Below, one piece after another: positions 9,965 to 61,981 of a stretch of DNA of 64,000 nucleotides (within the stretch, counting starts at the first letter, position 1; every line of letters starts with the position of its first letter). The position numbers and the translations under genes are program-made. The DNA comes from an uncultured virus (IMG/VR IMGVR_UViG_3300046832_001626) (lineage: Duplodnaviria; Heunggongvirae; Uroviricota; Caudoviricetes): IMG/VR virus record IMGVR_UViG_3300046832_001626; one strand, given 5' to 3'. The notes below the pieces were generated by a model. That model had not been told where the DNA came from. It made no database searches and worked only from the letters and a program-made list of their open reading frames with translations.

Positions 9965-10123
9965 ATGGAAGACGTGAAACAAATTAAATGTGGCTGTGGA
10001 CGTAGTCCAACTGGTTACTGCATTGGCTTGCATGCAATGACAAATGAACAATACAAGGCTCATTTGGAACAACAGCAAAAGCAACTCAACGAACAGACAA
10101 AGCCACAATTCTTGATTGATTAA
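9965..10123 (+). CDS. 52-aa CDGSH-like Fe-S/Zn finger mini-protein (not in the ORF track)
   Basis: GGAG RBS; MEDVKQIKCGCGRSPTGYCIGLHAMTNEQYKAHLEQQQKQLNEQTKPQFLID. Confidence 0.7.
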   Translation: MEDVKQIKCGCGRSPTGYCIGLHAMTNEQYKAHLEQQQKQLNEQTKPQFLID

Positions 10124-10415
10124 TGGTAGTGAACCTCTGACTAAAGGTGTTCTGGACTCGGGTTCGACCCCCGACATCTCCACCAAATGCCCATCACCTC
10201 TTCAGCAATGTACGTGGTGGCTATCTTATGGGGATGAATTTGGCTTCGACAGGGCAAGTAATAAACCAAAGGCTACCAGTGAGGCGACTGACTTAATCAG
10301 CGCAAACAAAGTAAACGCAAATGACGATTACTACGAAATGGCTCTAGCTGCTTAATTGCAGTCATAGATTACCTGAGTTTTCGGTGGGTTTTCTTGGAAA
10401 CAGAATAAACGCACC
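10124..10415 (+). ncRNA. ssrA: Circularly permuted (two-piece) tmRNA
   Basis: The acceptor piece (T-arm TCGGG-TTCGACC-CCCGA and CATCTCCACCA ending at 10185) precedes the coding piece starting GGGGATG at 10230. The acceptor stem has G3:U. The tag ORF at 10317-10355 encodes ANDDYYEMALAA*. Outer boundaries are approximate. Confidence 0.92.
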
Positions 10416-14261: not shown

Positions 14262-14290
14262 CAGGGGGACGTAAAGTCCCCCTTTTTTTT
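14262..14290. terminator. Terminator between convergent operons
   Basis: AGGGGGAC-GTAAA-GTCCCCCT followed by a T run. Confidence 0.85.
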
Positions 14291-15716
14291 ATGGACCGCC
14301 GCCGTAATTATATTTTGGATGTTGAGCATCATACGATGACAATCTGGAGAATGTGTTGTCATCTGTGAATACTCTTTGCGTCTTAGATTGATTGTTATTC
14401 ATTGGTGCGGTTGTGTTGTTATTGATCACCACAGGCTGTTGCTGTTGTTGCGCAATATTTTCTATAGATTTATTCATTGCATTTGAAAAATCTTGTAATC
14501 TTTCTTTCTCTGCTTGTCCCTGAAGAATTTTATTGGTGTTCTGCATCAATCCACTAGTTGTAACATCTTGAGTTTTTGGAAGCGAAAATCGACCAATGGC
14601 ACTTAATCCCTTTGCCTTAACTTCCTCTTCTTTGTCTTTCATAAGTGATGAAACTTGTTTGAATGATCCTGGAGCATAAAACTCACTATAGAGCCGTTTA
14701 AAAACTTCCCACGGATTATTTGGATTATAATCATCTTCTTCATCAACAGGGGTATTCGCGCGTGGTGTCACATCTGGTTGATCGCCAGCGCCACCTTCTG
14801 ATACATTTGTATCACCACCACCTTCATCTGATTGATCATCTTCGCGATTACGAGTCCCGCCAACCACCACTTCATCTAACTGATCTTTTTCACCACCACG
14901 AGTTCCACTAACTACAACTTCATCTAGTTGCTCATCATTTTCTGGTGTTACTTTTTTGTATGATAAGTTTAGTTCAGAAAGTTTATAATTCTCTGGTACA
15001 TCGTCTTGCTTTTGATCAAAGAGTTTACCAACAATATCTTGAAACTCATTTGGATCTGGTTGAGTGTCAGATGTTGGTACTGGTTCCAACTGAGAGGGAT
15101 CAAATTCGTTGGGTTGTTCTGTTCCAGTAAAATTACCATTTTGTGCATCCATTATTGCACGCAGAGCATCTGGAATCGAATCGCTAAATGCCGAATTTCT
15201 AGTAAAATCGCTGATTCCATCAAGTGCTGCAGCAGAAGCTGTCATAGTAGGATCAAGAGTAAGTTCTGGAGATCGTGATGAATATAATCTTGCCCCTTCT
15301 AAATCCATCTGTTGTGATGGTGCATTATAATTGTTTTTTCTTTCTTCTACGACCATATCATTTAGAAATTCTAATGCACTATCACCGCTCATTTTTGTTG
15401 TCTCAGTAGAATCAGCTGCTCGAGAATATGATGAAGTTGCGTCTGCAGACCCCTGTTCGCCAATTTTACTGTTAAATGCATTACTAATATTGATTCCTAT
15501 GTTTTTTGTATCTGTTGTCATCACTTTCTTAATCATTTCCTGCACATCATCTGGAGAATTAAATGTTTCAGTAACTCTGGATGCTGCCGTAGCTCTAGTT
15601 CCACCACCATAACGTTGAGCAAAACCATTGCGCAATTCTTCTCCACGCATTTGGAAATCAGTTAAACTACCTAATCCATCTATAGGAATTCTAAAATTAA
15701 AATTTGGTGATAACAT
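14289..15716 (-). CDS. gp29-position tape-measure/hub-like protein with 2 TonB-box-like motifs
   Basis: Directly downstream of gp26/gp51. Acidic and low-complexity, with C-terminal 'QQQQPVVINNNTTAP'. Contains LDEVVVSGTR and LDEVVVGGTR. Confidence 0.55.
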   Translation of the reverse strand: MLSPNFNFRIPIDGLGSLTDFQMRGEELRNGFAQRYGGGTRATAASRVTETFNSPDDVQEMIKKVMTTDTKNIGINISNAFNSKIGEQGSADATSSYSRAADSTETTKMSGDSALEFLNDMVVEERKNNYNAPSQQMDLEGARLYSSRSPELTLDPTMTASAAALDGISDFTRNSAFSDSIPDALRAIMDAQNGNFTGTEQPNEFDPSQLEPVPTSDTQPDPNEFQDIVGKLFDQKQDDVPENYKLSELNLSYKKVTPENDEQLDEVVVSGTRGGEKDQLDEVVVGGTRNREDDQSDEGGGDTNVSEGGAGDQPDVTPRANTPVDEEDDYNPNNPWEVFKRLYSEFYAPGSFKQVSSLMKDKEEEVKAKGLSAIGRFSLPKTQDVTTSGLMQNTNKILQGQAEKERLQDFSNAMNKSIENIAQQQQQPVVINNNTTAPMNNNQSKTQRVFTDDNTFSRLSSYDAQHPKYNYGGGP

Positions 15717-15871
15717 TAAGTTCTCTTATTGTGTCTTTCTCTCAATCGATCGTTTTCTTCTTGTACATGTTGCGCCACTAGTGTAACATACATTGTTCGT
15801 TCCCACGGAAGCATTTGCTCAAGTTCCGTTAGGCTATATCCATGATGTTGCATCAATGCAAAATTAGTCAT
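15716..15871 (-). CDS. gp51: Baseplate hub assembly protein gp51-like (not in the ORF track); possibly made as a gp26-gp51 frameshift fusion
   Basis: (ENLKTYF)MTNFALMQHHGYSLTELEQMLPWERTMYVTLVAQHVQEEN... Confidence 0.8.
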   Translation of the reverse strand: MTNFALMQHHGYSLTELEQMLPWERTMYVTLVAQHVQEENDRLRERHNKRT

Positions 15872-15903
15872 GAAGTATGTTTTCAAATTCTCATCACGAA
15901 GGC

Positions 15904-16626
15904 TTATACGAAAAAATCGAGGAGACCCTCCAGCCTGATAGTATGGTTCTTACCACATTTACCACAGACTAATACTGATTTATGTCTCAACACTGGCATG
16001 TCAGAGAAAAACTTCTTAATTTTCTTAAACTGTTCAGTTGTTAGATTATTAACAAATTCCTCAAACTCACCCTCTTGCATATCGCTCAATTTATATACTT
16101 GGCTTTCATCATAAAGATATTCAGTGCATTCCTTTAGAATTTCAATTGGTGCATCTTTACTATTAAATTTATCAATCAATGATCTTGACATACTCATTGT
16201 CGGATACATTATCTTAATTCCAACATCATTCGTTAATTGAATCATGTTGTCAACTGGTTTATGATCCAATGCGACTTTCAATAAGTCGACTTCCATCTTC
16301 ATCTTTGTTTTACAAACCTTGTTTTCCTCTGACACATTTTCGCAAATATATTCTAAAGAAACGACTTCACCAATTGATCGAGCGCGAAGATTTAAAAATA
16401 AAAATTCAATCTCAAACAATGGTAATTTATCTACATCAATTTCATCTAGAACGCAATTTCGAATAATTTGTTTAATTGCTTCAATGCTTGTATCGTAATC
16501 AAGTGACTCTAGAGCCATTAGGAGAATCTTTTCTTCTTTTACCACAAATGGTCTAAAGACAACATCTTTCCCTAACGATTCAAGCCTCACTTTATAAGTC
16601 GGTAAATCAATTTTTGGTATAGCCAT
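15904..16626 (-). CDS. gp26: Baseplate hub assembly chaperone
   Basis: 'MAIPKIDLPTY...FRPFVVKEEKILLMA', 'EFLFLNLRARSIGE', 'CGKCG...LEGLLDFF'. Confidence 0.92.
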   Translation of the reverse strand: MAIPKIDLPTYKVRLESLGKDVVFRPFVVKEEKILLMALESLDYDTSIEAIKQIIRNCVLDEIDVDKLPLFEIEFLFLNLRARSIGEVVSLEYICENVSEENKVCKTKMKMEVDLLKVALDHKPVDNMIQLTNDVGIKIMYPTMSMSRSLIDKFNSKDAPIEILKECTEYLYDESQVYKLSDMQEGEFEEFVNNLTTEQFKKIKKFFSDMPVLRHKSVLVCGKCGKNHTIRLEGLLDFFV

Positions 16627-16661
16627 AATTTACTCCATTAAGAATTAAAATCCTCCGATTT

Positions 16662-17486
16662 TTAACCACCACCTGTAAACTTTGCAGGTCTCTTTGGTTG
16701 AACTTTTGGTCTTCCGTTTGGTTTAGGTGTTGTAATTGATGGTTTTCTTCTGCCAGTCACAACAACGCTCTCAAGAACTTCAGTTGATCTTTTCTGTCCT
16801 GTTACAGTAACACCAACGAGCGTATCTGTATCGCTACGAGTTCCAGTAACAGTAACGCCAAGTAGTGTTTCTTCCTTTCTTGTTCCAGTAACAGTAACGC
16901 CAAGAAGTTCATCAATAATCTTATTATTTTCAGTTTCTGAACTCTTCAAATTTCTCCAGTAACGATATGAGAAACTCACATCAAGTCTAGAAACTTCTTG
17001 CTCAGACCAATTTCCTCGAATTGATCCCACCTGGAAAGGATATGCTTCTAATAATTCAATGCCATAAGAAATAGATCTACCATCTTCAGTAATTTGATAC
17101 ATGGTCACTTTTCCGATATAATCATCTCTATATCGCAAATCAAATCCTCTTTCTTTAGGATTAATATAGTTTACCCAAGCGTCAAAAAACTTTCTTTGTG
17201 ACATCTGGTCATCAACCAAAAATGTAACAGTTGCTTGATTATAGTCAGATCTAGTTGGATATGCTACAGCTGGACCATTTAAATTAATTGTATTAAGAAG
17301 CAAGTCATAAGATGGAATCGTTACTGCTTCTGCATAATAGGTAAATGAATCGGCTTTAAATCCTCGCGTTAGTGCTGCAGGAGGATTAATACGAACAGCA
17401 ATTCTATTCAGTCTAGAAAAACCATCAAATTTGGTTCGACTGATAAAATCTGATATATTTAATGCACTATATGTATCAAATGCCAT
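16662..17486 (-). CDS. gp54: Tail tube initiator (gp54-like, gp19 fold) with C-terminal TonB-box-like repeats
   Basis: Tube-fold motifs 'FSRLNRIAVRI', 'QRKFFDAWVNYI', 'LLEAYPFQVG', 'LDVSFSYRYW', followed by four L.GVTVTGTR/LESVVVTGRR repeats. Confidence 0.75.
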   Translation of the reverse strand: MAFDTYSALNISDFISRTKFDGFSRLNRIAVRINPPAALTRGFKADSFTYYAEAVTIPSYDLLLNTINLNGPAVAYPTRSDYNQATVTFLVDDQMSQRKFFDAWVNYINPKERGFDLRYRDDYIGKVTMYQITEDGRSISYGIELLEAYPFQVGSIRGNWSEQEVSRLDVSFSYRYWRNLKSSETENNKIIDELLGVTVTGTRKEETLLGVTVTGTRSDTDTLVGVTVTGQKRSTEVLESVVVTGRRKPSITTPKPNGRPKVQPKRPAKFTGGG

Positions 17487-18034
17487 TATCCATAACTCCT
17501 CATATTTTCAACAGGTAAGAATATAGCAGTTTCCCAGTAATTTGGCTCAATGTAAATTATTGGTGATAGCATCTGATCATACAAATATCTGCGCATACAC
17601 TGTTGAATACCTGAGAATTTACTCATGCCTTTCAATAGATCATAAGACATAACAAATCGTGTACTATCGTCATATTTATCGTTATTCAAGAACATGTATA
17701 AATTGCCAAGAATTGTGAGTCTGCTTTGGGGTGGGAGAAAATGAAAGTTTATTCCAGTAAAACCATCGCCTGTGACCGTTGTTGGAATCACCAGTGGAAA
17801 CTCATCCCATTGTGACAATCGTTCTTTTGTCAGTGGATCGTATCTAAAGAAAAACATACGACCGATAGCTGCGAATGGAGTGATTCGTTTAGCGTCATTC
17901 AGAATGTTAGATCTGTTTGTAGGAATTCTAGCCTCTGCAACCTTACTTTGTATGAATTTCTTAGCCTGTTCTGTGCGGTGCGTTATGCCTGCTTTAGACA
18001 TTTGACGGTCTATTTTTTCAAATAATGATGGCAT
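17486..18034 (-). CDS. gp2: DNA end protector protein
   Basis: 'GRMFFFRYDP..K..L..WDEFPLVI...GFTGINFHFLP', 'WETAIFLP'. Confidence 0.9.
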   Translation of the reverse strand: MPSLFEKIDRQMSKAGITHRTEQAKKFIQSKVAEARIPTNRSNILNDAKRITPFAAIGRMFFFRYDPLTKERLSQWDEFPLVIPTTVTGDGFTGINFHFLPPQSRLTILGNLYMFLNNDKYDDSTRFVMSYDLLKGMSKFSGIQQCMRRYLYDQMLSPIIYIEPNYWETAIFLPVENMRSYG

Positions 18035-18468
18035 TAGATACCTAAATGATCCTCGGTTATAACGTTAAATTTCCAGTTCCTATCCTTACAATATTCTGTC
18101 GCCGCCTTCCATTTAGCCTCATTCACTCCCCAGTTCGCGACTTCTTGAATATATTGCCTTGTAACTCGACTTTTCATTTTAGGAGGGGCGGCTTGGCTCT
18201 TAGGCTTGACCTCTAAAATAACACTTTCTTCTAATCCGTTCTTATTCTTAACTTTAACATAGAAATCTGGGAAATACCGATGCCATCTTCCATCAACAGG
18301 GGATAAATATGGAATAACGATCTCTTCGTTTGACCAACCAATAACGTTCGGATTTTCATCCAAATGCACCATTACTCGACGTTCCCAAAGACTTCTGTAC
18401 CAGATGTTCTTATGGTCGCCTAAATATTTGTTGATATTTTTTGGATTGTATTTTCCGCTGTAAGCCAT
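18034..18468 (-). CDS. gp4: Head completion nuclease
   Basis: 'AYSGKYNPKNINKYLGD..NIWYRSLWE', 'HRYFPDF', 'VNEAKWKAA'. Confidence 0.95.
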   Translation of the reverse strand: MAYSGKYNPKNINKYLGDHKNIWYRSLWERRVMVHLDENPNVIGWSNEEIVIPYLSPVDGRWHRYFPDFYVKVKNKNGLEESVILEVKPKSQAAPPKMKSRVTRQYIQEVANWGVNEAKWKAATEYCKDRNWKFNVITEDHLGI

Positions 18469-18472
18469 CAGT

Positions 18473-18480
18473 TATTTATA
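18473..18480 (-). promoter_or_regulatory. T4-type late promoter for the minus-strand operon
   Basis: TATAAATA on the minus strand, 4 nt before the gp4 ATG. Confidence 0.75.
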
Positions 18481-18490
18481 GGAATTATAG

Positions 18491-19729
18491 ATGAGCACAA
18501 TCACCTCCCAACCTTCTGCTCTCAATCCAGGGAGTACTCTTGAAGAAGTTGTCGTTTCTGGAACCAGACAAGGGGATCGATTAGATGAAATCATTGTGGG
18601 TGGAACTCGAGTCGGCAGCGACAAATTAAATGGAGTTGTTGTAACTGGTACAAACGCTCCGATTGATGGACAAAGACTTGAGGGAGTAGTTGTTACGGGT
18701 TCAAAACGTAAAAAAGCCGAGCCAATGCATTTATATTATCCAAAGGCTCTTGCAGACCCGACTGCAGAATTTAAAAACGCAATTCAATTTACGGTATATC
18801 AACAGATTAATTCTTATGCAACTGCACCAGATACAATTCCCCCAGTAAGACAGTTACCAGAACAATTTAAAAATAATCCTAAATTTCCGATAAGTGCTGC
18901 AGGCGCAACTTCAGCATTTTTCTTAACAAGTGGCATAAATCAAGCGATTCCATTATTAGGGAGCGCCTCACAAGCTGCGCTCGATCTAGTCGGTATTGGC
19001 AAATTTGGGCTTGACTATTTTATGCAGGGTGAGAACTCCTCATATGGTAAAAGAACCAATCGGATTGATCAATCAATCACTCTTTATATGCCAGACACAA
19101 TGGTAAATCAAGATAAACACGACTATCAACCTGCATCATTGACGGCAGCAGCTGGAAGAGCTGGAATTTTATCGCAACTAAGAGCATTTGGTGGTTCAAA
19201 TATCGGTGGTCTTGAGGTTGCTGCAGAACTTGCTTCCAAAGCAGGAATTTTAGGAACTCGTGCCACAGAAGCATTATTAGCAGGATATGGTTATGCAGTG
19301 AATCCAATGCTTGAGATGATTTATGGTGGAACTCAACCAAGAGAATTCTTGTTCCAGTTCAGATTTGCGCCAAGAAATAAAGAGGAAGCAGAAGAAGTGA
19401 TAAAGATTATTCGCGCATTTCGTTTTCATGCAGCAACAGAAAGTGCTGGCGGTAACGTAGATACTCAATCTGGGACAGGCAGCAGATACATCGTACCACC
19501 CAATCAGTTTGAGATTCAATTTCTCCGTAGAGTGAACGGCAGATTAGAAGAAAATTTATCAATTCCTAGAGTAGCGACTTGTATGCTTGCAGGAATCAAT
19601 ACAAACTACGCTGCTCAGTTAGATACTTTTGCGACAACCACAGATGGAATTCCAGCTTCCATCAGTCTAGACTTATCATTCGTCGAAAGCGTTGTCATCA
19701 CAAAGAACGATATAGGAAACGGATATTAA
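18491..19729 (+). CDS. gp48: Baseplate tail-tube cap with N-terminal TonB-box-like repeats
   Basis: 'ITLYMP', 'VNPMLEMIYGGTQPREFLFQFRFAPRNKEEAEEVIKIIRAFR', 'LDLSFVES'; four L[ED]..VV.GT[RK]-type repeats at the N-terminus. Confidence 0.85.
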   Translation: MSTITSQPSALNPGSTLEEVVVSGTRQGDRLDEIIVGGTRVGSDKLNGVVVTGTNAPIDGQRLEGVVVTGSKRKKAEPMHLYYPKALADPTAEFKNAIQFTVYQQINSYATAPDTIPPVRQLPEQFKNNPKFPISAAGATSAFFLTSGINQAIPLLGSASQAALDLVGIGKFGLDYFMQGENSSYGKRTNRIDQSITLYMPDTMVNQDKHDYQPASLTAAAGRAGILSQLRAFGGSNIGGLEVAAELASKAGILGTRATEALLAGYGYAVNPMLEMIYGGTQPREFLFQFRFAPRNKEEAEEVIKIIRAFRFHAATESAGGNVDTQSGTGSRYIVPPNQFEIQFLRRVNGRLEENLSIPRVATCMLAGINTNYAAQLDTFATTTDGIPASISLDLSFVESVVITKNDIGNGY

Positions 19730-20616
19730 TGTCATATTTTATTAAATTTCCTAGAGTATTATATTCTGTAAACAAGGAAGGGACAAACCCTAAACTTATT
19801 CCAGACTTAACTGCACGTGTAAAGTTTTTAGATCAAGTAATTTCTAATCAAAATCTTTTCTTCAAATATGAAGTCAAGGGTGGAGAAACTCCAGAGCAGA
19901 TTGCTCATCGTGTGTATGGAGATCCTGAGAAACATTGGATTCTTTTACTAGTAAATCAGTTGATTGATCCGCAATTTGATTGGGTTCTTGGTCCATATGA
20001 ATTTGAAAAACATATCAAACAAAAATATGCATCTTTAAACGTCAGTTTAAAAACCACAGAAACATATCCAATTGGCTATACAGTTGGTGAAATTGTGTAT
20101 CAGGGTTCAACATATGATAAGTCGACCGCCGAAGGAACGGTTGTTGCATACAACTCTGGAACTAAAACGCTTCAAGTTAAATTGCCTTCACAAGTTTTAG
20201 CAAATGGAAGCAATATAACTGGCATTTCTTCTGCACAGACTCATACGATTGTTGCAATCACCAACAATCAAGATGGCTATCAGTGGGCAGTTAATAACAC
20301 AAGTCACTATGAAGTTTCTGAAACACGATCAAGCACATTTGATCCGACATTCTCTGAGGTGAAGAAATATAGAGTAACAGCTAATTCTTATAATCACTCA
20401 ACAAATTCAGTCATTGCAGTAAATACAAATACCTCATATTCAAATAGTTATACTCTTGCTGATAACACAGTGTTCACAATTGCAACCACTGTATCTCCAA
20501 TTTCTTACTACGACTATGAACTTGAACTCAATGAGAATAGAAGAAGAATTGTAGTACCAAAATCATCTATCATCGGTGCTATCGAAACGCAATTTAATTC
20601 ATTTATGGCACAATAA
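19729..20616 (+). CDS. gp53: Baseplate wedge subunit
   Basis: 'MSYFIKFP', LysM-like 'YEVKGGETPEQIAHRVYGDPEKHWILLLVN', 'YDYELELNENRRRI'. Confidence 0.9.
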   Translation: MSYFIKFPRVLYSVNKEGTNPKLIPDLTARVKFLDQVISNQNLFFKYEVKGGETPEQIAHRVYGDPEKHWILLLVNQLIDPQFDWVLGPYEFEKHIKQKYASLNVSLKTTETYPIGYTVGEIVYQGSTYDKSTAEGTVVAYNSGTKTLQVKLPSQVLANGSNITGISSAQTHTIVAITNNQDGYQWAVNNTSHYEVSETRSSTFDPTFSEVKKYRVTANSYNHSTNSVIAVNTNTSYSNSYTLADNTVFTIATTVSPISYYDYELELNENRRRIVVPKSSIIGAIETQFNSFMAQ

Positions 20617-21941
20617 TGAGAGAAGAAAATCCTAGTGGCAAGGCTGGTTCACAGCCTAGAACAGAATATGATTATTTTCTACAAGAGCTGAAGATTGTTA
20701 ATGCTCTAGGTGCTAGCATTGATATTGACAATGTATTTGAAGAGATCAATATTTACGAGGACATTTTTAGTAATGTATTAAATGGTGACATTACAATCAA
20801 AGACTCTGCAAATATTATCAATCGTATGCAGATGCACGGTAATGAGTTTTTGTCTATAAGTTTTAAAACTCCGTCTCTAAACAAATACGAAAAAACATTT
20901 AGAATCTACAAAATTACAAATTTGAGCATGCGTCAAACTTCTAACGCATCATATAAACTTCATTTTTGTTCTGAAGAATTTTTCATCAATCAGCAGTATA
21001 TGATATCAAAATCATTTAAAGAAAAGAAACTGTCTGATGTTGTAACTACAATTGCAAGAAACTTTTTAAGAATTTCTGAAAAGAAATTACCTGCAAATGA
21101 AATTGAAGAGTCGACTTTACTTATGTCCATTGATGATAGCCCATTGATCATCCCAAACATGAGACCACTTGAGGCAATTAATTGGGTTTCTTCTTTTGCA
21201 TTGAGTAAGTTTGATTTATCCCCAGGATTCTTTTTCTATGAGACTACGAATGGGTTTACTTTTAGATCATTCAGTAATCTATTAAGTGGGCAAATTAAAA
21301 GAACAATTTACTATGCACCAAAAAACGAAAATCCGTCAGAATCACTCGCGTCAAAACATGATAAACTTGATCAATTCGAAGTTAAGCAGATGTTTGACAT
21401 GCTTGAGGGGATAAACAGTGGTGCATATGGTTCTAGAATTAAGAAAATTGACTTCTTGAATAGAAAAGTAGAAAATGAGAAGTTTGTATTGAATAATAAT
21501 ACTTTTACCACGCTGAATCAGAATATTCCTTTTAATCTAGCAAAAAATCGATTTAATGATCCTGTCAATGGATCTTCATCATACGAACGATTCTTTCCGA
21601 AATTTCAGGGTGATTTGGTTGGACGTTGGTTGTTAGTTAGAGCATCTAGAATTGCATTGTTGACTGCCACTAAAATGCATATTGATATTCCAGGTGACAG
21701 CATGTTATCTGTGGGCGATATTGTAAAACTAAACATCCCCGAAAATGATGCAAAAGTTGATATTCAAAATATTAAACTAGATTCTATGCTATCAGGAAGA
21801 TATCTAATTACTGGATTAAGACATCAACTATTAGGTGATAAATATTTTGCGCATGCACAGCTCTGCAAAGACTCTGTAATCTTCAATTTAAATTATGCGC
21901 CTCCATATAACTCAACTTGGAATTTGGTAATTAATTCATGA
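20616..21941 (+). CDS. Baseplate hub / tail protein (gp27-like)
   Basis: 'INIYEDIFSNVLNGDITIKD', 'FFFYET', 'IPGD..LSVGDIV', 'LSGRYLITGLRH'; lies just before gp5. Confidence 0.7.
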   Translation: MREENPSGKAGSQPRTEYDYFLQELKIVNALGASIDIDNVFEEINIYEDIFSNVLNGDITIKDSANIINRMQMHGNEFLSISFKTPSLNKYEKTFRIYKITNLSMRQTSNASYKLHFCSEEFFINQQYMISKSFKEKKLSDVVTTIARNFLRISEKKLPANEIEESTLLMSIDDSPLIIPNMRPLEAINWVSSFALSKFDLSPGFFFYETTNGFTFRSFSNLLSGQIKRTIYYAPKNENPSESLASKHDKLDQFEVKQMFDMLEGINSGAYGSRIKKIDFLNRKVENEKFVLNNNTFTTLNQNIPFNLAKNRFNDPVNGSSSYERFFPKFQGDLVGRWLLVRASRIALLTATKMHIDIPGDSMLSVGDIVKLNIPENDAKVDIQNIKLDSMLSGRYLITGLRHQLLGDKYFAHAQLCKDSVIFNLNYAPPYNSTWNLVINS

Positions 21942-24367
21942 AACAGATAAAGAATTTCATAGGATTTGAGGGTTTCATTTGGTGGGTTGGTGTTGTTGAA
22001 GACCGCGACGATCCTGAAAAAATTGGAAGATGTAAGGTAAGGATTTTTGGTGTCCATAGCGAAGACAAGAGCCTCATCCCAACAGAAGATCTTCCTTGGG
22101 CGATTCCTGTTTATTCAATTAATAATAACGATTCATTCTCTACTCCAAAAGAGGGTGAGTATGTCATTGGATTTTTCTTAGACGGCACATTCAGTCAGGC
22201 ACCTGCCATGTTAGGTGTTTTGCCAGGATTCAATAATCAAACTCCACCAGAAGGTGTGGGGTTTGGAGACATGAGGACTGCTGAGAAGATTAGAAAGTCG
22301 CCGAAAAAACCAGTCGCAATTGATTATCCAGAAGCAAGATCAGGGCACCCGACTGCAATCAGCGGAAACATTATTAATGATGGTGTTGGCGTATCAAAAT
22401 TAGTCACTGATAGTATCATATTGCATTTACCATTATCATTAAATGCTCGTCCATCTTTGACAGATGATGGACAAATCATTATCGGTTATAATCATAAAAT
22501 TACGCAAAGAGAATTAAACCAAGGATATATTCCACTCAGAAATGGCGAAAATGTTGCGGTTAATGGTCTGATTGGTTATGAGACTCGAATAACAAAGTCT
22601 CAAGCAAAAGTTTTATTAGATATGGATATAGTTAACACCATTGTTTCTGCACGAGACTCAATTGGCTCAACAACATGGGATTCTTTGACTGTTCCTCAAA
22701 AAGCTGGATTAGTCTTGAATGCATACCATCTTGGAACAAGAACAGACTTTGAGAAATCTGGCGTTAGATCTGCGGTGACATCGGGTGACGTAATTCGTGC
22801 TGCCCAACTTTTAAGTTCTGAGATGTTGAAATCATCCACAGGAAAATATTTAAAGAGTGAGGAAGGAATTGCGCATATCGCTGCAAGTCTATTTAAATCA
22901 ATACCAAGATCTAGTATTGCCTCTACACGCGCAAACACAGCCTTGAATACAAGTCCTGTTATTGTTGCAGGCGCAGGCATTGGCGTACAAGTCCACGAAT
23001 CTAATATTGCTGAAGATGAAAATGCGCTTTCATTAAAATATCCAACACCAGAAGAAATTGGTAAGTCTTCATTGAGCGATCTTGTATCATATGAAGATAA
23101 GACTCTTATTCAAAAGTTTAGAGAAAGATCTCCAGTAAGCGCAATTGGGGCGAATAATGAGTCCTGGACTGAACCAAGTCCAGCCTATTCTGCAGAATAT
23201 CCACACAATAAAGTTAAAGAGACTGAGTCTGGTCACGTATTTGAGATGGACGATACGCCATATAACGAGCGCGTACATCTAGCCCATCGCTCTGGAAGTT
23301 TTATTGAATGGTATCCAAGTGGAACAAAGGTTGAGAAGGTTGTTAAAAATAATTATAAGTTAGTAATGAGCGACGATCACATTTATGTCGCTGGAAAGGT
23401 GAACGTTGTATTAGAATCAAATGCACATGTAAAGATCGTAGGTGATTGTTTCTTGCAAGTTGAGAATGATCTAAATGCTTCAGTTAGCGGAAATGTTAAT
23501 TTCTCTGTCGGAGATGCCTTTAATATCAAAGCAAATACTCTCAAATTCGACATTGCGCAAACTTCAACCATTATAGCGGCAACGCATAGCACAACAGGAT
23601 CTCCATTGACAATAACTGCTCCTCCACGCAGAGGAACACCTACTGCAACGCAGAAGTTTTTAGAAGCTGATAAGGTTGTCAAATTGAGCGATGATATCAT
23701 TAGAGACAACAATAGGATTTTAAAGGACTATTTGGCAAATCCATACAATTTCCCAGCCACTTATAGAAATGTAAAGAGATATATTGCAACCTCTCCGAAG
23801 TCTGGTTCGGATCTAATCTATAAGAATACTGTTGGCGAAAGTCTAATTTTAATTAACGAGACTGCAAACATATCAAAGTGGTTGGACAAACAATTAGAAT
23901 TAGCGGCGAATGGCTATTGGAGAGAAACTGGATTCGAGTTAACAGGAGAGATTCAGCCTTCTAATCCTAATATTCTAAGCATGTGGAGAAATTTAGGGTT
24001 TACTCTCGAATATTGGACTCAAAGCGACCAGACTGTATGGGCGATGGCATTCGTTAATTATGGTCTAAAGCAAAATGGATATCGCTATGTTCAAACTCCA
24101 CATCCAAGAGATCTTGAAATTCGATTTGAAGATTATAGATTTAGTCGTGTAAAACCAGAGGATGCTCGAGCAGGAGACGTGGTTCTTTGGGCTAATGATC
24201 ACGTCAACTTTGTTTATGAAAATATTAATGGAACTCTTAGATTCGTCGGTGGAGCGCAACCACCAGACTCAAGATTAGACATCGGAGACGGTCGTATTGG
24301 CGATGTATCTATTGTTGGTGATGGAGGATGCCCAATTGTTACCATTCTCCGTCCTTCCAACACATAA
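21938..24367 (+). CDS. gp5: Baseplate central spike with degenerate lysozyme and NlpC/P60-CHAP-like domains
   Basis: OB-fold 'WWVGVVEDRDDPEKIGRCKVRIFGVH..LPWA', 'YPHNKVKETESGHVFEMDDTP..ER...HRSGSF', beta-helix repeats. Confidence 0.92.
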   Translation: MKQIKNFIGFEGFIWWVGVVEDRDDPEKIGRCKVRIFGVHSEDKSLIPTEDLPWAIPVYSINNNDSFSTPKEGEYVIGFFLDGTFSQAPAMLGVLPGFNNQTPPEGVGFGDMRTAEKIRKSPKKPVAIDYPEARSGHPTAISGNIINDGVGVSKLVTDSIILHLPLSLNARPSLTDDGQIIIGYNHKITQRELNQGYIPLRNGENVAVNGLIGYETRITKSQAKVLLDMDIVNTIVSARDSIGSTTWDSLTVPQKAGLVLNAYHLGTRTDFEKSGVRSAVTSGDVIRAAQLLSSEMLKSSTGKYLKSEEGIAHIAASLFKSIPRSSIASTRANTALNTSPVIVAGAGIGVQVHESNIAEDENALSLKYPTPEEIGKSSLSDLVSYEDKTLIQKFRERSPVSAIGANNESWTEPSPAYSAEYPHNKVKETESGHVFEMDDTPYNERVHLAHRSGSFIEWYPSGTKVEKVVKNNYKLVMSDDHIYVAGKVNVVLESNAHVKIVGDCFLQVENDLNASVSGNVNFSVGDAFNIKANTLKFDIAQTSTIIAATHSTTGSPLTITAPPRRGTPTATQKFLEADKVVKLSDDIIRDNNRILKDYLANPYNFPATYRNVKRYIATSPKSGSDLIYKNTVGESLILINETANISKWLDKQLELAANGYWRETGFELTGEIQPSNPNILSMWRNLGFTLEYWTQSDQTVWAMAFVNYGLKQNGYRYVQTPHPRDLEIRFEDYRFSRVKPEDARAGDVVLWANDHVNFVYENINGTLRFVGGAQPPDSRLDIGDGRIGDVSIVGDGGCPIVTILRPSNT

Positions 24368-45870: not shown

Positions 45871-46221
45871 ATGGCTAATTTAGTAAAAATTAAGAAAATT
45901 ACTGTATACACTGCAATGACTGCAGATGCAGCTGAGTGCTGGGATGTTTTAAAACTTCTCAAGGACAACAATGTTCCATTTCATCATTTGAATTGGGGCG
46001 ATGATTCTACACTCGCAGGTTTATTCAGTGCGCTTAACACTTGGAACTACTTTAATGGTACAGAATTCTATCACAAAGAATTCACTAAACTTCCAATTGT
46101 TCACTGGGAATGTGTGTATGATGACGATGCTGTTGTTACAAATGCAGCAGAAGGTCTCGCAGAACTACAAGCATCAGAACTGATGGCAAATCTAAGCAAG
46201 ATTGTTCAACCAGTAACCTGA
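45871..46221 (+). CDS. Glutaredoxin-fold-like protein lacking CxxC
   Basis: 'ITVYT...AECWDVLKLLKDNNVPFHHLN...KLPIV'; AAGGAGG RBS. Confidence 0.5.
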   Translation: MANLVKIKKITVYTAMTADAAECWDVLKLLKDNNVPFHHLNWGDDSTLAGLFSALNTWNYFNGTEFYHKEFTKLPIVHWECVYDDDAVVTNAAEGLAELQASELMANLSKIVQPVT

Positions 46222-46230
46222 TAAAATAAA

Positions 46231-49200
46231 ATGCCTTTAGCAGCTACGACTCTTCGAAAAACTAGAGTAAAAGCTGGTTCCGTCACATTCTCAAGTAACG
46301 GGACATGGACCATTCCATTTGGTGTCCGTGTAATCACAGTCAGTGGTCGCGGTGGCGCAGGCAATGCAGGCACTTCTGGTAATTCAGGAACCAATGGTGT
46401 TGGCGGTACAGGCGGCGCTGCGGGCAATGGCGGCACAGCAGGAGCTGCTGGCAATCCAGGTTCTATTGGTAACACAGGTCAGCCAGGACAACCAGGAACT
46501 AATGGTGTAGGTGGTGCTGGTGGTGCAGGGGGTGCTGCTGGCAATTCAGGCGCTCAAGGTAATTCTGGTCAACCAGGAACCAATGGTGCTGGCGGTGCTG
46601 GCGGTGCTGGCGGTACTGCAGGTAATGCTGGAGCACAAGGTAACACTGGACAACCTGGCACTAATGGCGTAGGTGGCGGCGGTGGAGCTGGCGGTACTGC
46701 AGGTAATGCTGGAGCACAAGGTAATGCAGGTAATCCAGGAACCAATGGTGTAGGTGGCGGTGGTGGTGCTGGTGGTACAGCTGGTAACAGTGGTGCCATT
46801 GGAAACTCTGGTCAACCAGGAACTAATGGTGCTGGTGGTGCTGGTGGTGCAAGAGGTAATGCAGGAAATCCAGGAAATGCTGGTGCAATCGGCAATTCTG
46901 GAAATCCTGGAACTAATGGTACTGGTGGTGCTGGTGGTACTGGTGGTGCTGCAGGTGCAGCTGGTAATCCAGGCTCACCAGGAAACGCTGGAACACCAGG
47001 CGGTGGCGGCGGTGGCGGCGGTGGCGGCGGCGGCGGATCTGCCACAGGTCAAGAATATTTTTATTATCTTGGATATCAATTATTCCAATTTGATAATGGA
47101 CAAAATGGCAGCGCAGGACAAGCGGGTGGAAATCCAGGAAGTGGCGCAGGTGGTTCAGGTGGTAACAGATCATATGTTGCTGGCGGCGGCGGTGCTTATG
47201 ATAACGGACAACCAGGTAATGCTGGACAACCAGGTTCTGCAGGTGGTGGAGGCAACACTGGTGGTGCTGGGTCTGGAGCAACATCAGGTGGTGCTGGCGG
47301 TGGTGGACAACCAGGTAATGCTGGTGCAAATGGTACTGCAGGCAATCCAGGTGCTGCTGGTAATGGTGGCACTGGTGCAACATCAGGTTCTGGAGGTCAA
47401 CCAGGAACTGCTGGCGCAAATGGTGTAGCAGGAAATCAAGGTGCCAATGGGACTGGTGCAAATCCAGGTGCTGGTGGTCAGCCAGGAACAGCAGGAGCAA
47501 ATGGAGCTGCAGGAAACCAAGGTGCCGCTGGGTCTGGTGCAAATCCAGGTGCTGGTGGTCAACCAGGAACGGCAGGTGCTGCAGGTGCTGCTGGAACCCA
47601 AGGTGCTGCTGGATCTGGCGCAAATTCAGGTGCTGCTGGACAACCAGGATTTGCTGGTTCTAATGGAGCGGCAGGAAATCAAGGTGCTTCTGGCACTGGT
47701 GCGAATTCTGGTGCAGCAGGTCAACCTGGAACAGCTGGTGCAAATGGCGCAGCAGGTGCTGCAGGAAATCAAGGCGCAAACGGAACTGCAGGAACTGGAG
47801 CAAATCCAGGAAATGCTGGACAACCAGGAAGCGCAGGAACAAATGGTGCAGCTGGAACTGCAGGAACAGCTGGTTCAGCGGGTAATGCTTCAACGTTTGT
47901 CGCAGGTTCTTTTGTAACAGTGTCATCAGTTTCATTGCCTGGAGGTGCTTCAGGGAATGGTGGTACAGCAGGTGCTGCAGGAACAGCTGGTCAACCAGGA
48001 AATGCAGGCACTTCTGGTAATCCAGGAACAAATGGTGCTGCAGGTACTGGTGGTGCAGGTGGCGGCGGTGGTGATGGTGGTGGAGCAGGAAATTCAGGCG
48101 CAATTGGTAACACTGGTCAACCAGGAACCAATGGTGTAGGTGGCGGCGGTGGAGCTGGCGGTACTGCAGGTAATGCTGGAGCACAAGGTAACAGTGGTCA
48201 ACCAGGAACTAACGGTGTAGGTGGAGCAGGAGGTTCAGGGGGCGGCGCAGGTAATGCTGGAGCACAAGGTAACAGTGGTCAACCAGGAACTAACGGTGTA
48301 GGTGGAGCTGGTGGCGCAAGAGGTAATGCTGGCAATCCAGGTGCTCAAGGAAATTCTGGTCAACCAGGAACCAATGGTGTTGGTGGTGCTGGCGGTGCAA
48401 GAGGTAATGCTGGCAATTCAGGTGCAATAGGAAATTCAGGTAATCCTGGAACCAATGGTGCTGCTGGTAACGGCGGTGCTGGTGGCGCAAGAGGTAATGC
48501 TGGTAATCCTGGAAATGCTGGAGCAACAGGAAACTCAGGTAATCCTGGAGCAAATGGAAATGGCGGCACAGGTGGTGCTGGTTCAAATGGTGGCACAGCT
48601 GGTAATGGTGGACAAGGCGGCTCAGTGCATGCTAATACAGGTCAACCTGTACCTGCTTCAAATAATGGTAACGCAGGTGTAAATGGAAATCCTGCAGGAA
48701 ATATCGGATATCCAGATTATGGAGCTGGTGGTCTATATGGTGCTGGTGGCACACCACCATACCAACCAGGATTCAATGGTGGTAATGCGGGTGGCGGTGG
48801 CAACGGTGGTTATGGTGGTTCAGGTAATCCTGGAAATCCAGGTAATGGTGGTTCAGGTGGATCTGCTGGAAATACAGGTGCAGCAGGTAATGCTGGCACT
48901 GGAGCAACTGCAGGTGCTGGCGGACAACCAGGAAACGCTGGGGGTGCTGGCGCAAATGGAAATGCAGGAAATCAAGGTGCCAATGGTACTGGTGCAAATC
49001 CAGGCGCTGGTGGTCAGCCAGGAACAGCAGGAGCAAATGGAGCTGCAGGAAATCAGGGTGCTGCTGGATCAGGCGCAACTTCAGGTGCAGCAGGTCAACC
49101 AGGAACAGCAGGAGCAAATGGAGCTGCAGGAAATCAAGGCGCAGCTGGTTCTGGGGCAACTTCAGGTGCTGCAGGTCAACCAGGAACTGGTGGCGCAAAT

Positions 49201-49584
49201 GGTGCTGCTGGAACCCAAGGTGCTTCTGGCACTGGTGCGAATTCAGGCGCTGCTGGACAGCCAGGTGCTGCTGGCTCAAATGGTGCTGCTGGAAATCAGG
49301 GTGCTGCAGGAACTGGAGCAACGAGTGGCAATCCTGGAGCTGCTGGACAGCCTGGAAATGCAGGCGGCGATGGTGCTGCAGGAACCGCTGGTGCTGCAGG
49401 AACCGCTGGTGCAAACGGATCGGGTGCAACTTCTGGTGGTGCAGGAAATCCAGGAAGCACTGCTTCAGTAAGTAGTGCTGCAAGAACAATGCAGAAAACT
49501 GTCTCACAAGGCGCATCAATTACAGTTTCAGTTGGAACAGGTTCTGCAACTGGTAATGTCACAATTAGTTGGGGCAACCAATAA
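46231..49584 (+). CDS. 1117-aa polyglycine-rich fibre/adhesin
   Basis: 'VTFSSNGTWTIPFGVRVITVSGRGG' start, two kinds of 27-aa Gly-rich repeat, 'ITVSVG...GNVTISW' end. Confidence 0.85.
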   Translation: MPLAATTLRKTRVKAGSVTFSSNGTWTIPFGVRVITVSGRGGAGNAGTSGNSGTNGVGGTGGAAGNGGTAGAAGNPGSIGNTGQPGQPGTNGVGGAGGAGGAAGNSGAQGNSGQPGTNGAGGAGGAGGTAGNAGAQGNTGQPGTNGVGGGGGAGGTAGNAGAQGNAGNPGTNGVGGGGGAGGTAGNSGAIGNSGQPGTNGAGGAGGARGNAGNPGNAGAIGNSGNPGTNGTGGAGGTGGAAGAAGNPGSPGNAGTPGGGGGGGGGGGGGSATGQEYFYYLGYQLFQFDNGQNGSAGQAGGNPGSGAGGSGGNRSYVAGGGGAYDNGQPGNAGQPGSAGGGGNTGGAGSGATSGGAGGGGQPGNAGANGTAGNPGAAGNGGTGATSGSGGQPGTAGANGVAGNQGANGTGANPGAGGQPGTAGANGAAGNQGAAGSGANPGAGGQPGTAGAAGAAGTQGAAGSGANSGAAGQPGFAGSNGAAGNQGASGTGANSGAAGQPGTAGANGAAGAAGNQGANGTAGTGANPGNAGQPGSAGTNGAAGTAGTAGSAGNASTFVAGSFVTVSSVSLPGGASGNGGTAGAAGTAGQPGNAGTSGNPGTNGAAGTGGAGGGGGDGGGAGNSGAIGNTGQPGTNGVGGGGGAGGTAGNAGAQGNSGQPGTNGVGGAGGSGGGAGNAGAQGNSGQPGTNGVGGAGGARGNAGNPGAQGNSGQPGTNGVGGAGGARGNAGNSGAIGNSGNPGTNGAAGNGGAGGARGNAGNPGNAGATGNSGNPGANGNGGTGGAGSNGGTAGNGGQGGSVHANTGQPVPASNNGNAGVNGNPAGNIGYPDYGAGGLYGAGGTPPYQPGFNGGNAGGGGNGGYGGSGNPGNPGNGGSGGSAGNTGAAGNAGTGATAGAGGQPGNAGGAGANGNAGNQGANGTGANPGAGGQPGTAGANGAAGNQGAAGSGATSGAAGQPGTAGANGAAGNQGAAGSGATSGAAGQPGTGGANGAAGTQGASGTGANSGAAGQPGAAGSNGAAGNQGAAGTGATSGNPGAAGQPGNAGGDGAAGTAGAAGTAGANGSGATSGGAGNPGSTASVSSAARTMQKTVSQGASITVSVGTGSATGNVTISWGNQ

Positions 49585-49586
49585 GA

Positions 49587-49615
49587 TTGCCTTATTTGTT
49601 TGTTTGAAGTATAAT
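49587..49615 (+). promoter_or_regulatory. sigma70-type promoter for the modification-enzyme cluster
   Basis: TTGCCT-17 bp-TATAAT. Confidence 0.7.
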
Positions 49616-49634
49616 ATGTGGCAGTGAGGACATT

Positions 49635-50360
49635 ATGTTCAGCAAATTAAAATCAATACTCAAAACTCCAGAAATTGAATTCTTGTGCGAAGAAGATCTC
49701 TATGGCACGATGCCAGAGCCATATCCTGCTCGCAAGTTCATGCCTGATTGGTATCGCGAACTACCACAAAAAATAAACGGCGAAGATAAACTTGAGAACG
49801 GTACAATCAAACGTTGTGCACCTGTTCTTGATGCAATGTCTGTTGGTTGGATTATTCCATTATGTGGTAATGTTGAATTTGTTACTAGTAATGATGCATC
49901 TGGTGTCAATTATAAGTGGATGTTCAATCGCGTTCTTGTAGAAAATCATAAAGAAGAACAAGTTTCTACGAAACATGCACCACACCCAATGGCACCACGA
50001 CCACCAATGAAATTTTTAAACTACTGGGGAATTCGAGTTCCACCAGGATATTCTGTTTTATTTGTTCCACCATTAAATCGTCAAGACCCACGATTTACTT
50101 GTTTATCTGGTTTTGTTGATTGCGATGGTTACATTGAATACATTAACTTTCCATTCTTCTTTAATGTTCCGAATTATACAGGAATCGTTAAAGCAGGTAC
50201 TCCTTTAGTTCAAGCGATTCCAATTAAACGAGATGGATATATCAAAAAATCAAGAGTTAGACAGTTTACAAAGGAAGATCATGTGAAGTTACAAAAACAA
50301 CGATACAAAAGAAACTCACACGAGAGCATTTATCGCGATTTCATTTGGACGAGAAAATAA
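49635..50360 (+). CDS. DUF6065-like protein
   Basis: 'PYPARKFMPDWY', 'TIKRCAPVLDAMSVGWIIP', 'PPGYSVLFVPPLN', 'GTPLVQAIP'. Confidence 0.6.
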   Translation: MFSKLKSILKTPEIEFLCEEDLYGTMPEPYPARKFMPDWYRELPQKINGEDKLENGTIKRCAPVLDAMSVGWIIPLCGNVEFVTSNDASGVNYKWMFNRVLVENHKEEQVSTKHAPHPMAPRPPMKFLNYWGIRVPPGYSVLFVPPLNRQDPRFTCLSGFVDCDGYIEYINFPFFFNVPNYTGIVKAGTPLVQAIPIKRDGYIKKSRVRQFTKEDHVKLQKQRYKRNSHESIYRDFIWTRK

Positions 50361-61468: not shown

Positions 61469-61981
61469 ATGCCTTTCAATATTACAGACTTTAAAGGAAA
61501 TTTTTCATTCGACGGCGCACGCCCTAATCTGTTTGAAGTTAACATTCCAGTGTTTGATCAAAAACTAACTTTTACAGCAAAAACAGCACAATTACCAGGT
61601 TCGACAATTGCAACAATTGAAGTTCCTTACTTTGGTAGAACAGTAAAAGTTGCTGGTAATAGAGTCTTCCCAGAGTGGACAATCACTGTCCTTAACGACG
61701 AAGATTTCGTTATCAGAAATCAATTGGAAGAATGGATGGGGAGAATGAACGGTCACGAAGGAAATCTTGCCGAATCATTCTATGCTGAATATGCATTTGA
61801 TGCAGAGGTCTATCAATACGGCAAACAAGGAAATATCATTAAGTCTTATACATTTATTGATATGTTCCCAACAGATATTTCACCTATTGATGTCAGCTGG
61901 GATGCAAATGATACAATCGAAGAATATGCTGTAACATTCTCATATCAATACTGGACTTCGCCAGACGCGCTAACTCTATAA
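61469..61981 (+). CDS. gp19: Tail tube protein
   Basis: 'GARPNLFEV', 'GRTVKVAGNRVFPEWTITVLNDEDF', 'IEEYAVTFSYQYW'. Confidence 0.95.
   Translation: MPFNITDFKGNFSFDGARPNLFEVNIPVFDQKLTFTAKTAQLPGSTIATIEVPYFGRTVKVAGNRVFPEWTITVLNDEDFVIRNQLEEWMGRMNGHEGNLAESFYAEYAFDAEVYQYGKQGNIIKSYTFIDMFPTDISPIDVSWDANDTIEEYAVTFSYQYWTSPDALTL

Follow-up and report, generated by a model that had tools for sequence, protein, structure and literature searches.

Why would three different proteins of one phage tail carry the same short peptide in tandem, and what would that peptide bind? This question is raised by a locus at positions 14,289 to 19,729 of a 64,000-nucleotide stretch of DNA, referred to here as the window, from an uncultured virus of the Caudoviricetes (IMG/VR record IMGVR_UViG_3300046832_001626). 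The locus encodes a gp48-like tail-tube cap, a paralogue of the tail-tube protein, and a protein at the position of the tape measure. Together these carry ten copies of a motif that resembles the TonB box of TonB-dependent transporters. A preliminary description of this DNA proposed that the repeats allow the virion to engage TonB of its host. Our data, which come from sequence comparison and structure prediction, are consistent with this proposal, and we place the probability that the repeats are virion-borne TonB-box mimics at roughly 0.4.

Ten copies of one motif on three proteins

Using a six-frame regular-expression scan together with translations of open reading frames (ORFs), we found ten copies of L-x-x-V-[VIT]-V-[STG]-G-x-[RKN] on three proteins, at the sites from which the preliminary description had reported them. 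Four copies lie on the plus strand at the start of the gp48-like gene (LEEVVVSGTR, 18539-18568; LDEIIVGGTR, 18581-18610; LNGVVVTGTN, 18626-18655; and LEGVVVTGSK, 18677-18706). Four others lie on the minus strand within the tube paralogue (LLGVTVTGTR twice, at 16878-16907 and 16836-16865; LVGVTVTGQK, 16791-16820; and LESVVVTGRR, 16746-16775), and the last two, also on the minus strand, within a protein of 475 amino acids (LDEVVVSGTR, 14898-14927; LDEVVVGGTR, 14850-14879). The expression has 11 matches in the window proteome (56 proteins, 20,064 amino acids), ten of which are the copies just listed. The eleventh is a loose match in a fibre-like protein of 1117 amino acids (46231-49584). The motif is thus absent from wedge, sheath and neck proteins, as had been claimed, while its claimed absence from fibre proteins has to allow for this one match. 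Residue shuffles of the window proteome (2000 in total) contained 0.14 matches on average and 3 at most, and each carrier protein shuffled alone gave no more than one match.

The copies differ from each other in synonymous codons; in one pair, for example, 9 of 10 residues and 22 of 30 bases are identical. Since synonymous codons differ, the likeness of the repeats is maintained at the level of the peptide and not by recent copying of DNA. Judged by these synonymous-site differences between copies, selection is acting on the repeat peptide. Positions 1, 4, 6, 8, and 10 make up the conserved core of the phage motif and are kept across the ten copies. Recent gene conversion among the three carrier genes was considered separately and is ruled out by the same synonymous-site differences.

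Likeness of the repeats to transporter TonB boxes

Taking one genome for each prokaryote species, we searched for DNA that encodes LEEVVVTG. This returned at least 120 stretches, 80 of which we analysed together with their flanks. In 71 of the 80, a Pfam Plug domain (E <= 1e-5) lies directly downstream in the same ORF. The nine loci that lack a Plug domain consist of two ORFs with CarboxypepD_reg and VWA domains (L097 and L132), two cut ORFs (L131, with an STN domain, and L142, with no family), two ORFs with CarboxypepD_reg only (L134 and L144), and three other ORFs without a family (L139, L141, and L143). The organisms at LEEVVVTG loci are mainly Bacteroidota and Gammaproteobacteria, and where the phage motif continues into G-[ST]-R it follows the proteobacterial style. 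The CarboxypepD_reg-VWA pair (L097 and L132, from Pontibacter and Pollutibacter) are non-transporters that bear the transporter N-terminal motif: a CarboxypepD_reg-like domain is followed by LEEVVVTGY and then by vWF_A/VWA domains in place of Plug.

A scoring matrix was trained on transporter N-termini picked by Plug score alone, which provided 80 usable segments. The training set held 30 Pseudomonadales, 29 Burkholderiales (with the G506 locus left out), 19 Alphaproteobacteria, and 3 Bacteroidia, the last of these under-sampled through the E-value cut-off. A motif search on the 80 segments gave the consensus E-V-V-V-T-[AG]-[TS]-R. When the matrix was run across the window proteome, the top 6 of 19,560 10-mers were phage repeats, and phage repeats made up 8 of the top 11 (8.7-14.9 bits). 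The gp48 repeats scored 14.2, 12.9, 8.7, and 10.9 bits in 5'-3' order, and the two repeats of the 475-amino-acid protein scored 13.2 (LDEVVVSGTR) and 14.9 bits (LDEVVVGGTR), ranks 3 and 1 of 19,560. The tube-paralogue repeats scored 9.6, 12.9, -1.7, and 0.3 bits, two of them near zero. The skeleton [LIVMF]xx[IVL]x[VI]x[GA]x[RK] is present in 29 of 81 transporter N-terminal regions and has 2 matches in the remaining 45,333 amino acids of the same proteins. By sequence, then, the repeat peptide is a specific, high-scoring TonB-box signature. The Plug loci, the matrix, and the skeleton count all bear out the earlier view that it is the typical strand of TonB-dependent transporters.

Two other approaches added little. 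NCBIfam and Pfam scans of the repeat segments (E <= 10) returned no transporter family, a result that is uninformative at 8-10 residues. A complex model of E. coli TonB residues 150-239 with gp48 residues 1-80 had a score of 0.00 and, made without controls, carries no weight either way on binding.

As in TonB-dependent transporters, the same 8-10-residue sequence lies in what is probably a flexible segment, the repeat-bearing tails of gp48 and the tube paralogue having a predicted local distance difference test (pLDDT) score of 28-42 in AlphaFold2 models. The phage motif differs in that it sits on virion proteins without a plug or barrel and is repeated in tandem, two to four times per chain and ten times in total. 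Furthermore, it has Gly at the eighth position, where Ala is commoner in transporters, and its binding to TonB is a prediction.

The three carrier proteins

The gp48-like baseplate tail-tube cap (412 amino acids; 18491..19729, plus strand) matches PHROG 230 (E 1.3e-41) and PF11091 (above cut-off), so the gp48 assignment made in the preliminary description is sound. A profile built from its relatives weakly matches T4 gp48 (chain 5iv5_U). Residues 1-75 form an N-terminal extension that contains the four repeats, and AlphaFold2 assigns this extension a pLDDT of 32-42.

The second carrier (274 amino acids; 16662..17486, minus strand) is a gp54-like paralogue with the tube fold, as indicated by phrog_45, by its profile, and by its AlphaFold2 model. 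The model has a core with the tube fold (residues 27-190, pLDDT 70-90) and a C-terminal tail (residues 196-274, pLDDT 28-41), and the four repeats lie within the last 80 residues. Compared with T4 proteins, its profile matches gp19 at 2.6e-9, gp3 at 0.027, and gp54 at 0.029. The tube protein gp19 is encoded by a separate gene of the window (61469-61981). Three tube paralogues are encoded by a more distant relative, and the only PDB match of the third (181 amino acids) is the T4 gp3 tube terminator (7.5e-5). Since gp19 is separate in the window and a gp3-like gene is separate in that relative, the 274-amino-acid protein is most likely the gp54 counterpart at the junction of tube and baseplate, reached by elimination and with a direct gp54 match of only E 0.029. 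Of the earlier gp54-like label, the part that stands directly is that this is a tube paralogue distinct from gp19 and gp3.

The identity of this protein as the gp3 tube terminator is ruled out by the separate gp3-like gene of the relative. The window protein ends in AKFTGGG after a deletion of about 19 bases relative to a 99%-identical copy on another contig (L003:140-255; window 16662-16700). The L003 copy continues GGFAGGGASGGF, and a remnant of this tail is still readable past the new stop of the window gene. In more distant relatives, the tube paralogue has a Gly-rich tail with a final aromatic residue.

The third carrier is an acidic, low-complexity protein of 475 amino acids at the tape-measure (gp29) position (14289..15716, minus strand), with its two repeats in a variable centre. 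Searches of Pfam, PHROG, and NCBIfam assigned it to no family, and in the PDB we found nothing that matched it meaningfully. Its gene lies upstream of a gp51-like ORF and gp26, and the gene at the same position in pelagiphage HTVC008M is annotated 'putative tail tape measure'. The gp29-like label given to it earlier therefore agrees with its location and finds no backing from families or structures. In 10 relatives, conserved N- and C-terminal blocks surround a hypervariable, acidic, repeat-bearing centre; the family blocks are F..RG..L.NGFAKRFGGG at the N-terminus, NPWERFK.LYADFY centrally, and VINNN...RVF.DDNTF.R...HP.Y at the C-terminus. Judged by the low confidence of the models, the repeat-bearing tails of gp48 and the tube paralogue are probably flexible.

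A candidate role for the repeats in phage entry

It is, to our knowledge, poorly understood, even in T4, by what means tailed phages span the periplasm and breach the inner membrane. Group B colicins and TonB-dependent pyocins carry a TonB box on a disordered translocation domain and make use of TonB-ExbBD of the host. Some phages use a TonB-dependent transporter as their receptor, as T5 does with FhuA, and the TonB box in those cases belongs to the host receptor.

The available part of a report on T4 describes gp48 residues 7-32 as an anchor loop that lies between gp53 and the first sheath layer and is freed on baseplate rearrangement (10.64898/2026.03.06.709160). According to the same part, gp48 stands at the tube's distal end, where it binds the transmembrane helix of the tape measure and flares on lipid contact, and the tape measure leaves through the gp48 end and forms a channel (10.64898/2026.03.06.709160). 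The phage repeats occupy the same N-terminal site as the T4 anchor loop, just before the conserved HLYYP/RYP block. By homology with T4, contraction would leave the gp48 repeats exposed at the tip of the tube, close to the inner membrane. Because the T4 tube extends as far as the inner membrane and gives passage to the tape measure, all three repeat sets would be exposed in the periplasm together. By this analogy, the T4 geometry supports both an intra-virion role of the repeats before contraction and a periplasmic role after it.

We hypothesized that ten flexible tandem strands (L-[ED]-E-V-V-V-[ST]-G-[ST]-R), on the tube cap, the adjacent tube-fold ring, and the tape-measure-position protein, serve as TonB boxes of the virion. 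Contraction would expose the three sets in the periplasm, and host TonB, which is anchored in the inner membrane, would pair with the strands by beta-augmentation. The large number of copies would provide avidity and so dock the tube tip at the inner membrane. The tape-measure-position protein may, in addition, be pulled by TonB-ExbBD. Tails of low confidence in AlphaFold2 are as expected of a strand that is offered for pairing. Variants of the form LESIDVxGxR, found in relatives, keep the alternate hydrophobic face of the strand and might bind in the same way or be tuned to the TonB of other hosts.

On this proposal, the phage would resemble the colicins and pyocins as an invading non-transporter with a TonB-box strand on a flexible tail. 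A bacteriocin, in contrast, threads a single box through a receptor, whereas the phage would deliver many through its contractile tail or ejection channel, and would do so for DNA and not for a toxin. Infection is linked to TonB in receptor-using phages as well, but here the phage itself would carry the boxes. T4 gp48 has a single loop (residues 7-32), with no repeats described in the available part of the report (10.64898/2026.03.06.709160). In the window protein, by contrast, four transporter-like strands lie on an extension of 75 residues. In addition, the same strand is found on two other proteins of the window.

In full-text literature outside subscription journals, we found no description of TonB boxes on phage gp48, tape-measure, tube, or ejection proteins, only work on T5 and FhuA, and the remark in the preliminary description that such boxes are undescribed for phage baseplate proteins agrees with this. 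If the repeats do bind TonB, the delivery of phage DNA would have its docking or pulling point in an energy-coupling machine of the host that bacteriocins are known to exploit. This would add a new class of host factor relevant to resistance and host range, it would provide a sequence signature for phage proteins that are sent into the periplasm, and it is a hypothesis that can be tested with peptides.

Conservation and variation of the repeats in related phages

N-terminal repeats, read by eye, are present in 31 of 41 gp48 homologues. Within the clade whose gp48 is at least 44% identical to that of the window, two or more repeats are found in 11 of 14 distinct gp48 proteins, in all 13 tube paralogues, and in 10 of 12 tape-measure-position proteins, while in more distant relatives repeats are found in 0 of 36 and 0 of 28. 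The copy number varies from 0 to 5 among relatives, and the gp48 set has been lost in 3 of 14 lineages (L019, L020, and L024). The tube paralogue keeps its repeats in all three of these lineages. The tape-measure-position protein also keeps them in L019 and L020, and in L024 an ORF at that position has three copies. Because copy number varies and gp48 can lose its set, redundant binding modules are favoured over a fixed structural element. The expected co-occurrence of the motif in gp48, gp54-like, and gp29-position proteins thus holds in the close clade, mostly in a variant form and with the gp48 set missing from 3 of 14 lineages.

The type of the motif shifts in step across all three carriers of a lineage. 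In the subclade of the window (gp48 at least 61% identical), position 5 is V, T, or I and position 7 is T, S, or G. The copies of most other lineages resemble LESIDVxGxR: residue 5 is Asp or Asn, and residue 7 varies. VGIDIxS copies occur in one lineage, whose gp48 is without repeats, and another lineage (L026) mixes types. In relatives, basic runs follow many of the repeat copies. A narrower pattern for the variant form had 5 stretches in viral contigs.

Recurrence of the motif in other phages

The LEEVVVTG DNA pattern is found in 63 stretches of viral contigs, compared with 30 for the reversed control. Single copies are no more frequent than expected by chance in portal, major tail, and short ORFs. 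Because the clusters of viral contigs hold related contigs, independent origins are few.

Proteins of a single family, with a high content of Ala, Gly, and Pro, are encoded on 25 contigs and are about 1000-1100 amino acids long (two full ORFs were read: L389:11546-14866, minus strand, and L390:3496-6489, plus strand) and with up to six tandem copies spaced about 50 residues apart. The six copies of the L390 protein are LPEVVITASK, LEEVVVQAAK, LEEVVVTGSK, IEEVVVTGSK, LDEVVVTGSR, and IEEVVVTGSK, and the family includes variants of the VVITA and VVVQA types. These proteins have no Pfam family and show weak matches to an internal-virion family and a tape-measure family. Their last 140 residues are 46% identical to a tape-measure-annotated protein of Caulobacter phages GB2A and RW, in which neighbouring genes carry the annotation lytic tail protein or DNA transfer protein; what the Caulobacter protein has of the motif is limited to weaker segments like DEIVVT. 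Tail-fibre or virion genes flank the gene of the 25-contig family on one side and three large unnamed genes on the other, and in the stretch read around it no sheath, tube, or baseplate-hub gene was named. From these sequence matches, the 25-contig proteins resemble ejection or tape-measure proteins and probably leave the virion. The phages that encode them are distant relatives of Caulobacter phages GB2A and RW and of phage DSL-LC04.

In a second T4-like lineage, the gp48 N-terminus bears one or two copies and the classical tape measure none, and one tape-measure protein (phrog_1292) has one copy. A Pfam scan of 19 viral motif carriers gave a family in one only, a true transporter on contig L242. 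ORFs of about 190-230 amino acids (stop to stop) on six contigs (L207, L213, L222, L227, L246, and L254) have a single LEEVVVTGSR and no Pfam or PHROG family. A tblastn search of cultured phages with the gp48 N-terminus and the tandem region of the 25-contig proteins as queries returned no match, and the low-complexity filter probably masked both queries.

A broader possibility is that multivalent TonB boxes on virions are a convergent and fairly widespread entry device, by which T4-like tips and unrelated ejection or tape-measure-like proteins capture TonB-ExbBD and dock the conduit at the inner membrane, perhaps with pulling by the proton motive force, and in which variants track the boxes of the host. 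We consider this generalization speculative and rather doubtful.

What the repeats might bind: TonB and the alternatives

In favour of TonB mimicry we count the precise match to a specific transporter signature, its multivalent display on probably flexible tails of three proteins that would reach the periplasm together, the redundancy of the sets with loss from one carrier, and the tandem recurrence in unrelated proteins that probably leave the virion. Several observations weigh against TonB as the partner. The phage repeats fall in the lower quartile of true transporter boxes (lower quartile 13.3, median 19.8 bits), and the variant copies of relatives mostly score below zero on the transporter matrix (-20 to +5 bits). 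The transporter-like form is confined to the subclade with at least 61% gp48 identity, where alone the commonest box is matched at every position, and the box form is not kept in relatives outside this subclade. Should one function have been retained throughout the clade, its original partner was not necessarily TonB. In the GTDB class Gammaproteobacteria (401 genomes), a pattern for DNA that encodes L-[DE]-x-I-D-V-x-G matched 34 times, compared with 13 by our count for the reversed control, and 0 of 31 translated contexts, read by eye, resembled a transporter N-terminus. The excess of 63 over 30 stretches in viral contigs is modest, and its clusters contain related contigs. That the 475-amino-acid protein is a putative tape measure we infer from its position alone. 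Finally, the homologous N-terminus of T4 gp48 has a structural job inside the baseplate, and the nearest cultured phages infect SAR11, OM43, and picocyanobacteria, some of which lack TonB systems.

A low matrix score does not exclude a working box, because natural boxes can also score low. Three transporters of one genome (G579; L404, L408, and L411) have the boxes LETIQVQGTR, LKKIEVKGQR, and LEKIVVTAER, which score from -2.7 to 5.2 bits. This 2.0-Mb genome has a beta-type, two-piece transfer-messenger RNA (tmRNA), and its boxes are polar at positions 5 and 7, like the variant repeats of the relatives of the window phage.

The alternative that survives best, which we nevertheless judge unlikely, is that the repeats are strands of the virion itself that pair with the baseplate, the sheath, the tube, or each other, and that their likeness to TonB boxes reflects the convergence of two strands used for beta-augmentation. 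The repeats could then be an enlarged T4 gp48 anchor loop, or a plug or hold for the tape-measure-position protein until contraction. Their location argues for such a role, since they lie at the place of the T4 gp48 segment (residues 7-32) that, in the available part of the report, is an anchor between gp53 and the sheath and is freed on contraction (10.64898/2026.03.06.709160). The commoner variant form would be a poor TonB box, and position 5 shifts in step between V or T and D or N, as expected of touching parts or of parts with a shared partner. However, gp48 repeats are lost in 3 of 14 lineages while the other carriers keep theirs, and copy number and linker length are variable, which is unusual for a fixed fold. 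In the T4 geometry, moreover, a protein of the lumen and an outward loop of gp48 would not easily share one partner within the virion, and the octapeptide also recurs in tandem in large proteins of phages whose fetched module lacks sheath, tube, and hub genes. As weaker evidence, AlphaFold2 gives the tails no structure. If the motif does act within the virion, it would be an undescribed, fast-evolving assembly element common to three proteins of the tail core.

It is clearly improbable, in our view, that the repeats bind a component of the host envelope other than TonB, such as a periplasmic or membrane strand acceptor or a peptidoglycan-associated protein, and thereby dock the tip or guide ejected proteins. 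A partner of this kind shares with TonB the exposure after contraction and the multivalent, flexible design, and it fits variants that score poorly as TonB boxes. No result points to a candidate, however, and it would be left unexplained why the subclade of the window and unrelated phage proteins have converged on precisely the transporter consensus, with L-E-E and G-[ST]-[RK] at its flanks. Least probable of all is that the repeats have no specific partner and are expandable low-complexity spacers whose alternation of acidic, beta-strand, and basic stretches is tolerated or of some slight use (to solubility, for instance, or to interactions with DNA or charges within the lumen): variable copy number, the loss of the set from one carrier, the location in low-confidence regions, and the basic runs after many copies in relatives would fit, but the ten copies, for all their synonymous divergence, retain positions 1, 4, 6, 8, and 10, the repeats are kept across a clade in which gp48 is only 44-100% identical, and the motif occurs in parallel in three unrelated protein contexts.

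Genomic context and possible host of the phage

The phage is T4-like, uncultured, and of the Kyanoviridae type, and the window is its structural module, with gp32, a hub cluster, wedge and fibre proteins, the neck, terminase, sheath, tube, and portal. We found no close cultured phage by tblastn, the best identity to the window gp48 being 27-32%, to pelagiphage HTVC008M and to phages of Aeromonas, Pseudomonas, and Vibrio. Between the genes for the 475-amino-acid protein and the tube paralogue lie, both on the minus strand, a small gp51-like ORF (56 amino acids; 15716..15886), assigned by position and DNA similarity, and the gene for a gp26-like baseplate hub protein (15904..16626; PF12322, E 3e-57, and phrog_150). 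The region of the 56-amino-acid ORF matches the gp51/gp26 junction of P-SSM2 in blastn. Also on the minus strand, between the tube paralogue and gp48, are the genes for the DNA end protector gp2 (17486-18034; phrog_429) and the head completion protein gp4 (18034-18468; phrog_218). The baseplate neighbours of gp48 on the plus strand (19729..24367) are the gp53 wedge protein, a hub or tail protein of 441 amino acids (phrog_350), and the gp5 hub/lysozyme. The synteny of gp48 with gp53, gp4, and gp2 is kept in order in 79 related viral loci.

The window also encodes a permuted, two-piece tmRNA (10071-10408, plus strand), which scores 111.3 bits with the Rfam beta_tmRNA model (gathering threshold 84) and 138 bits with tmRNA_permuted. 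ARAGORN predicts the tag peptide ANDDYYEMALAA. Among 151 sampled genomes of the GTDB order Burkholderiales, 3 have a tmRNA of the beta type above the cut-off, and every one of these encodes Plug-domain transporters (3, 4, and 14 per genome). The best DNA similarity of the window tmRNA to a host tmRNA is 84% over 50 bases. As weak evidence, this hints at a betaproteobacterial host with TonB-dependent transport.

One segment of the window stands out in composition. Positions 46001-50000 have a guanine-plus-cytosine (GC) content of 51-53% and a strong positive GC skew, compared with about 40% GC elsewhere, and this segment coincides with the gene for the 1117-amino-acid fibre-like protein, which has only weak matches to tail-fibre PHROGs.

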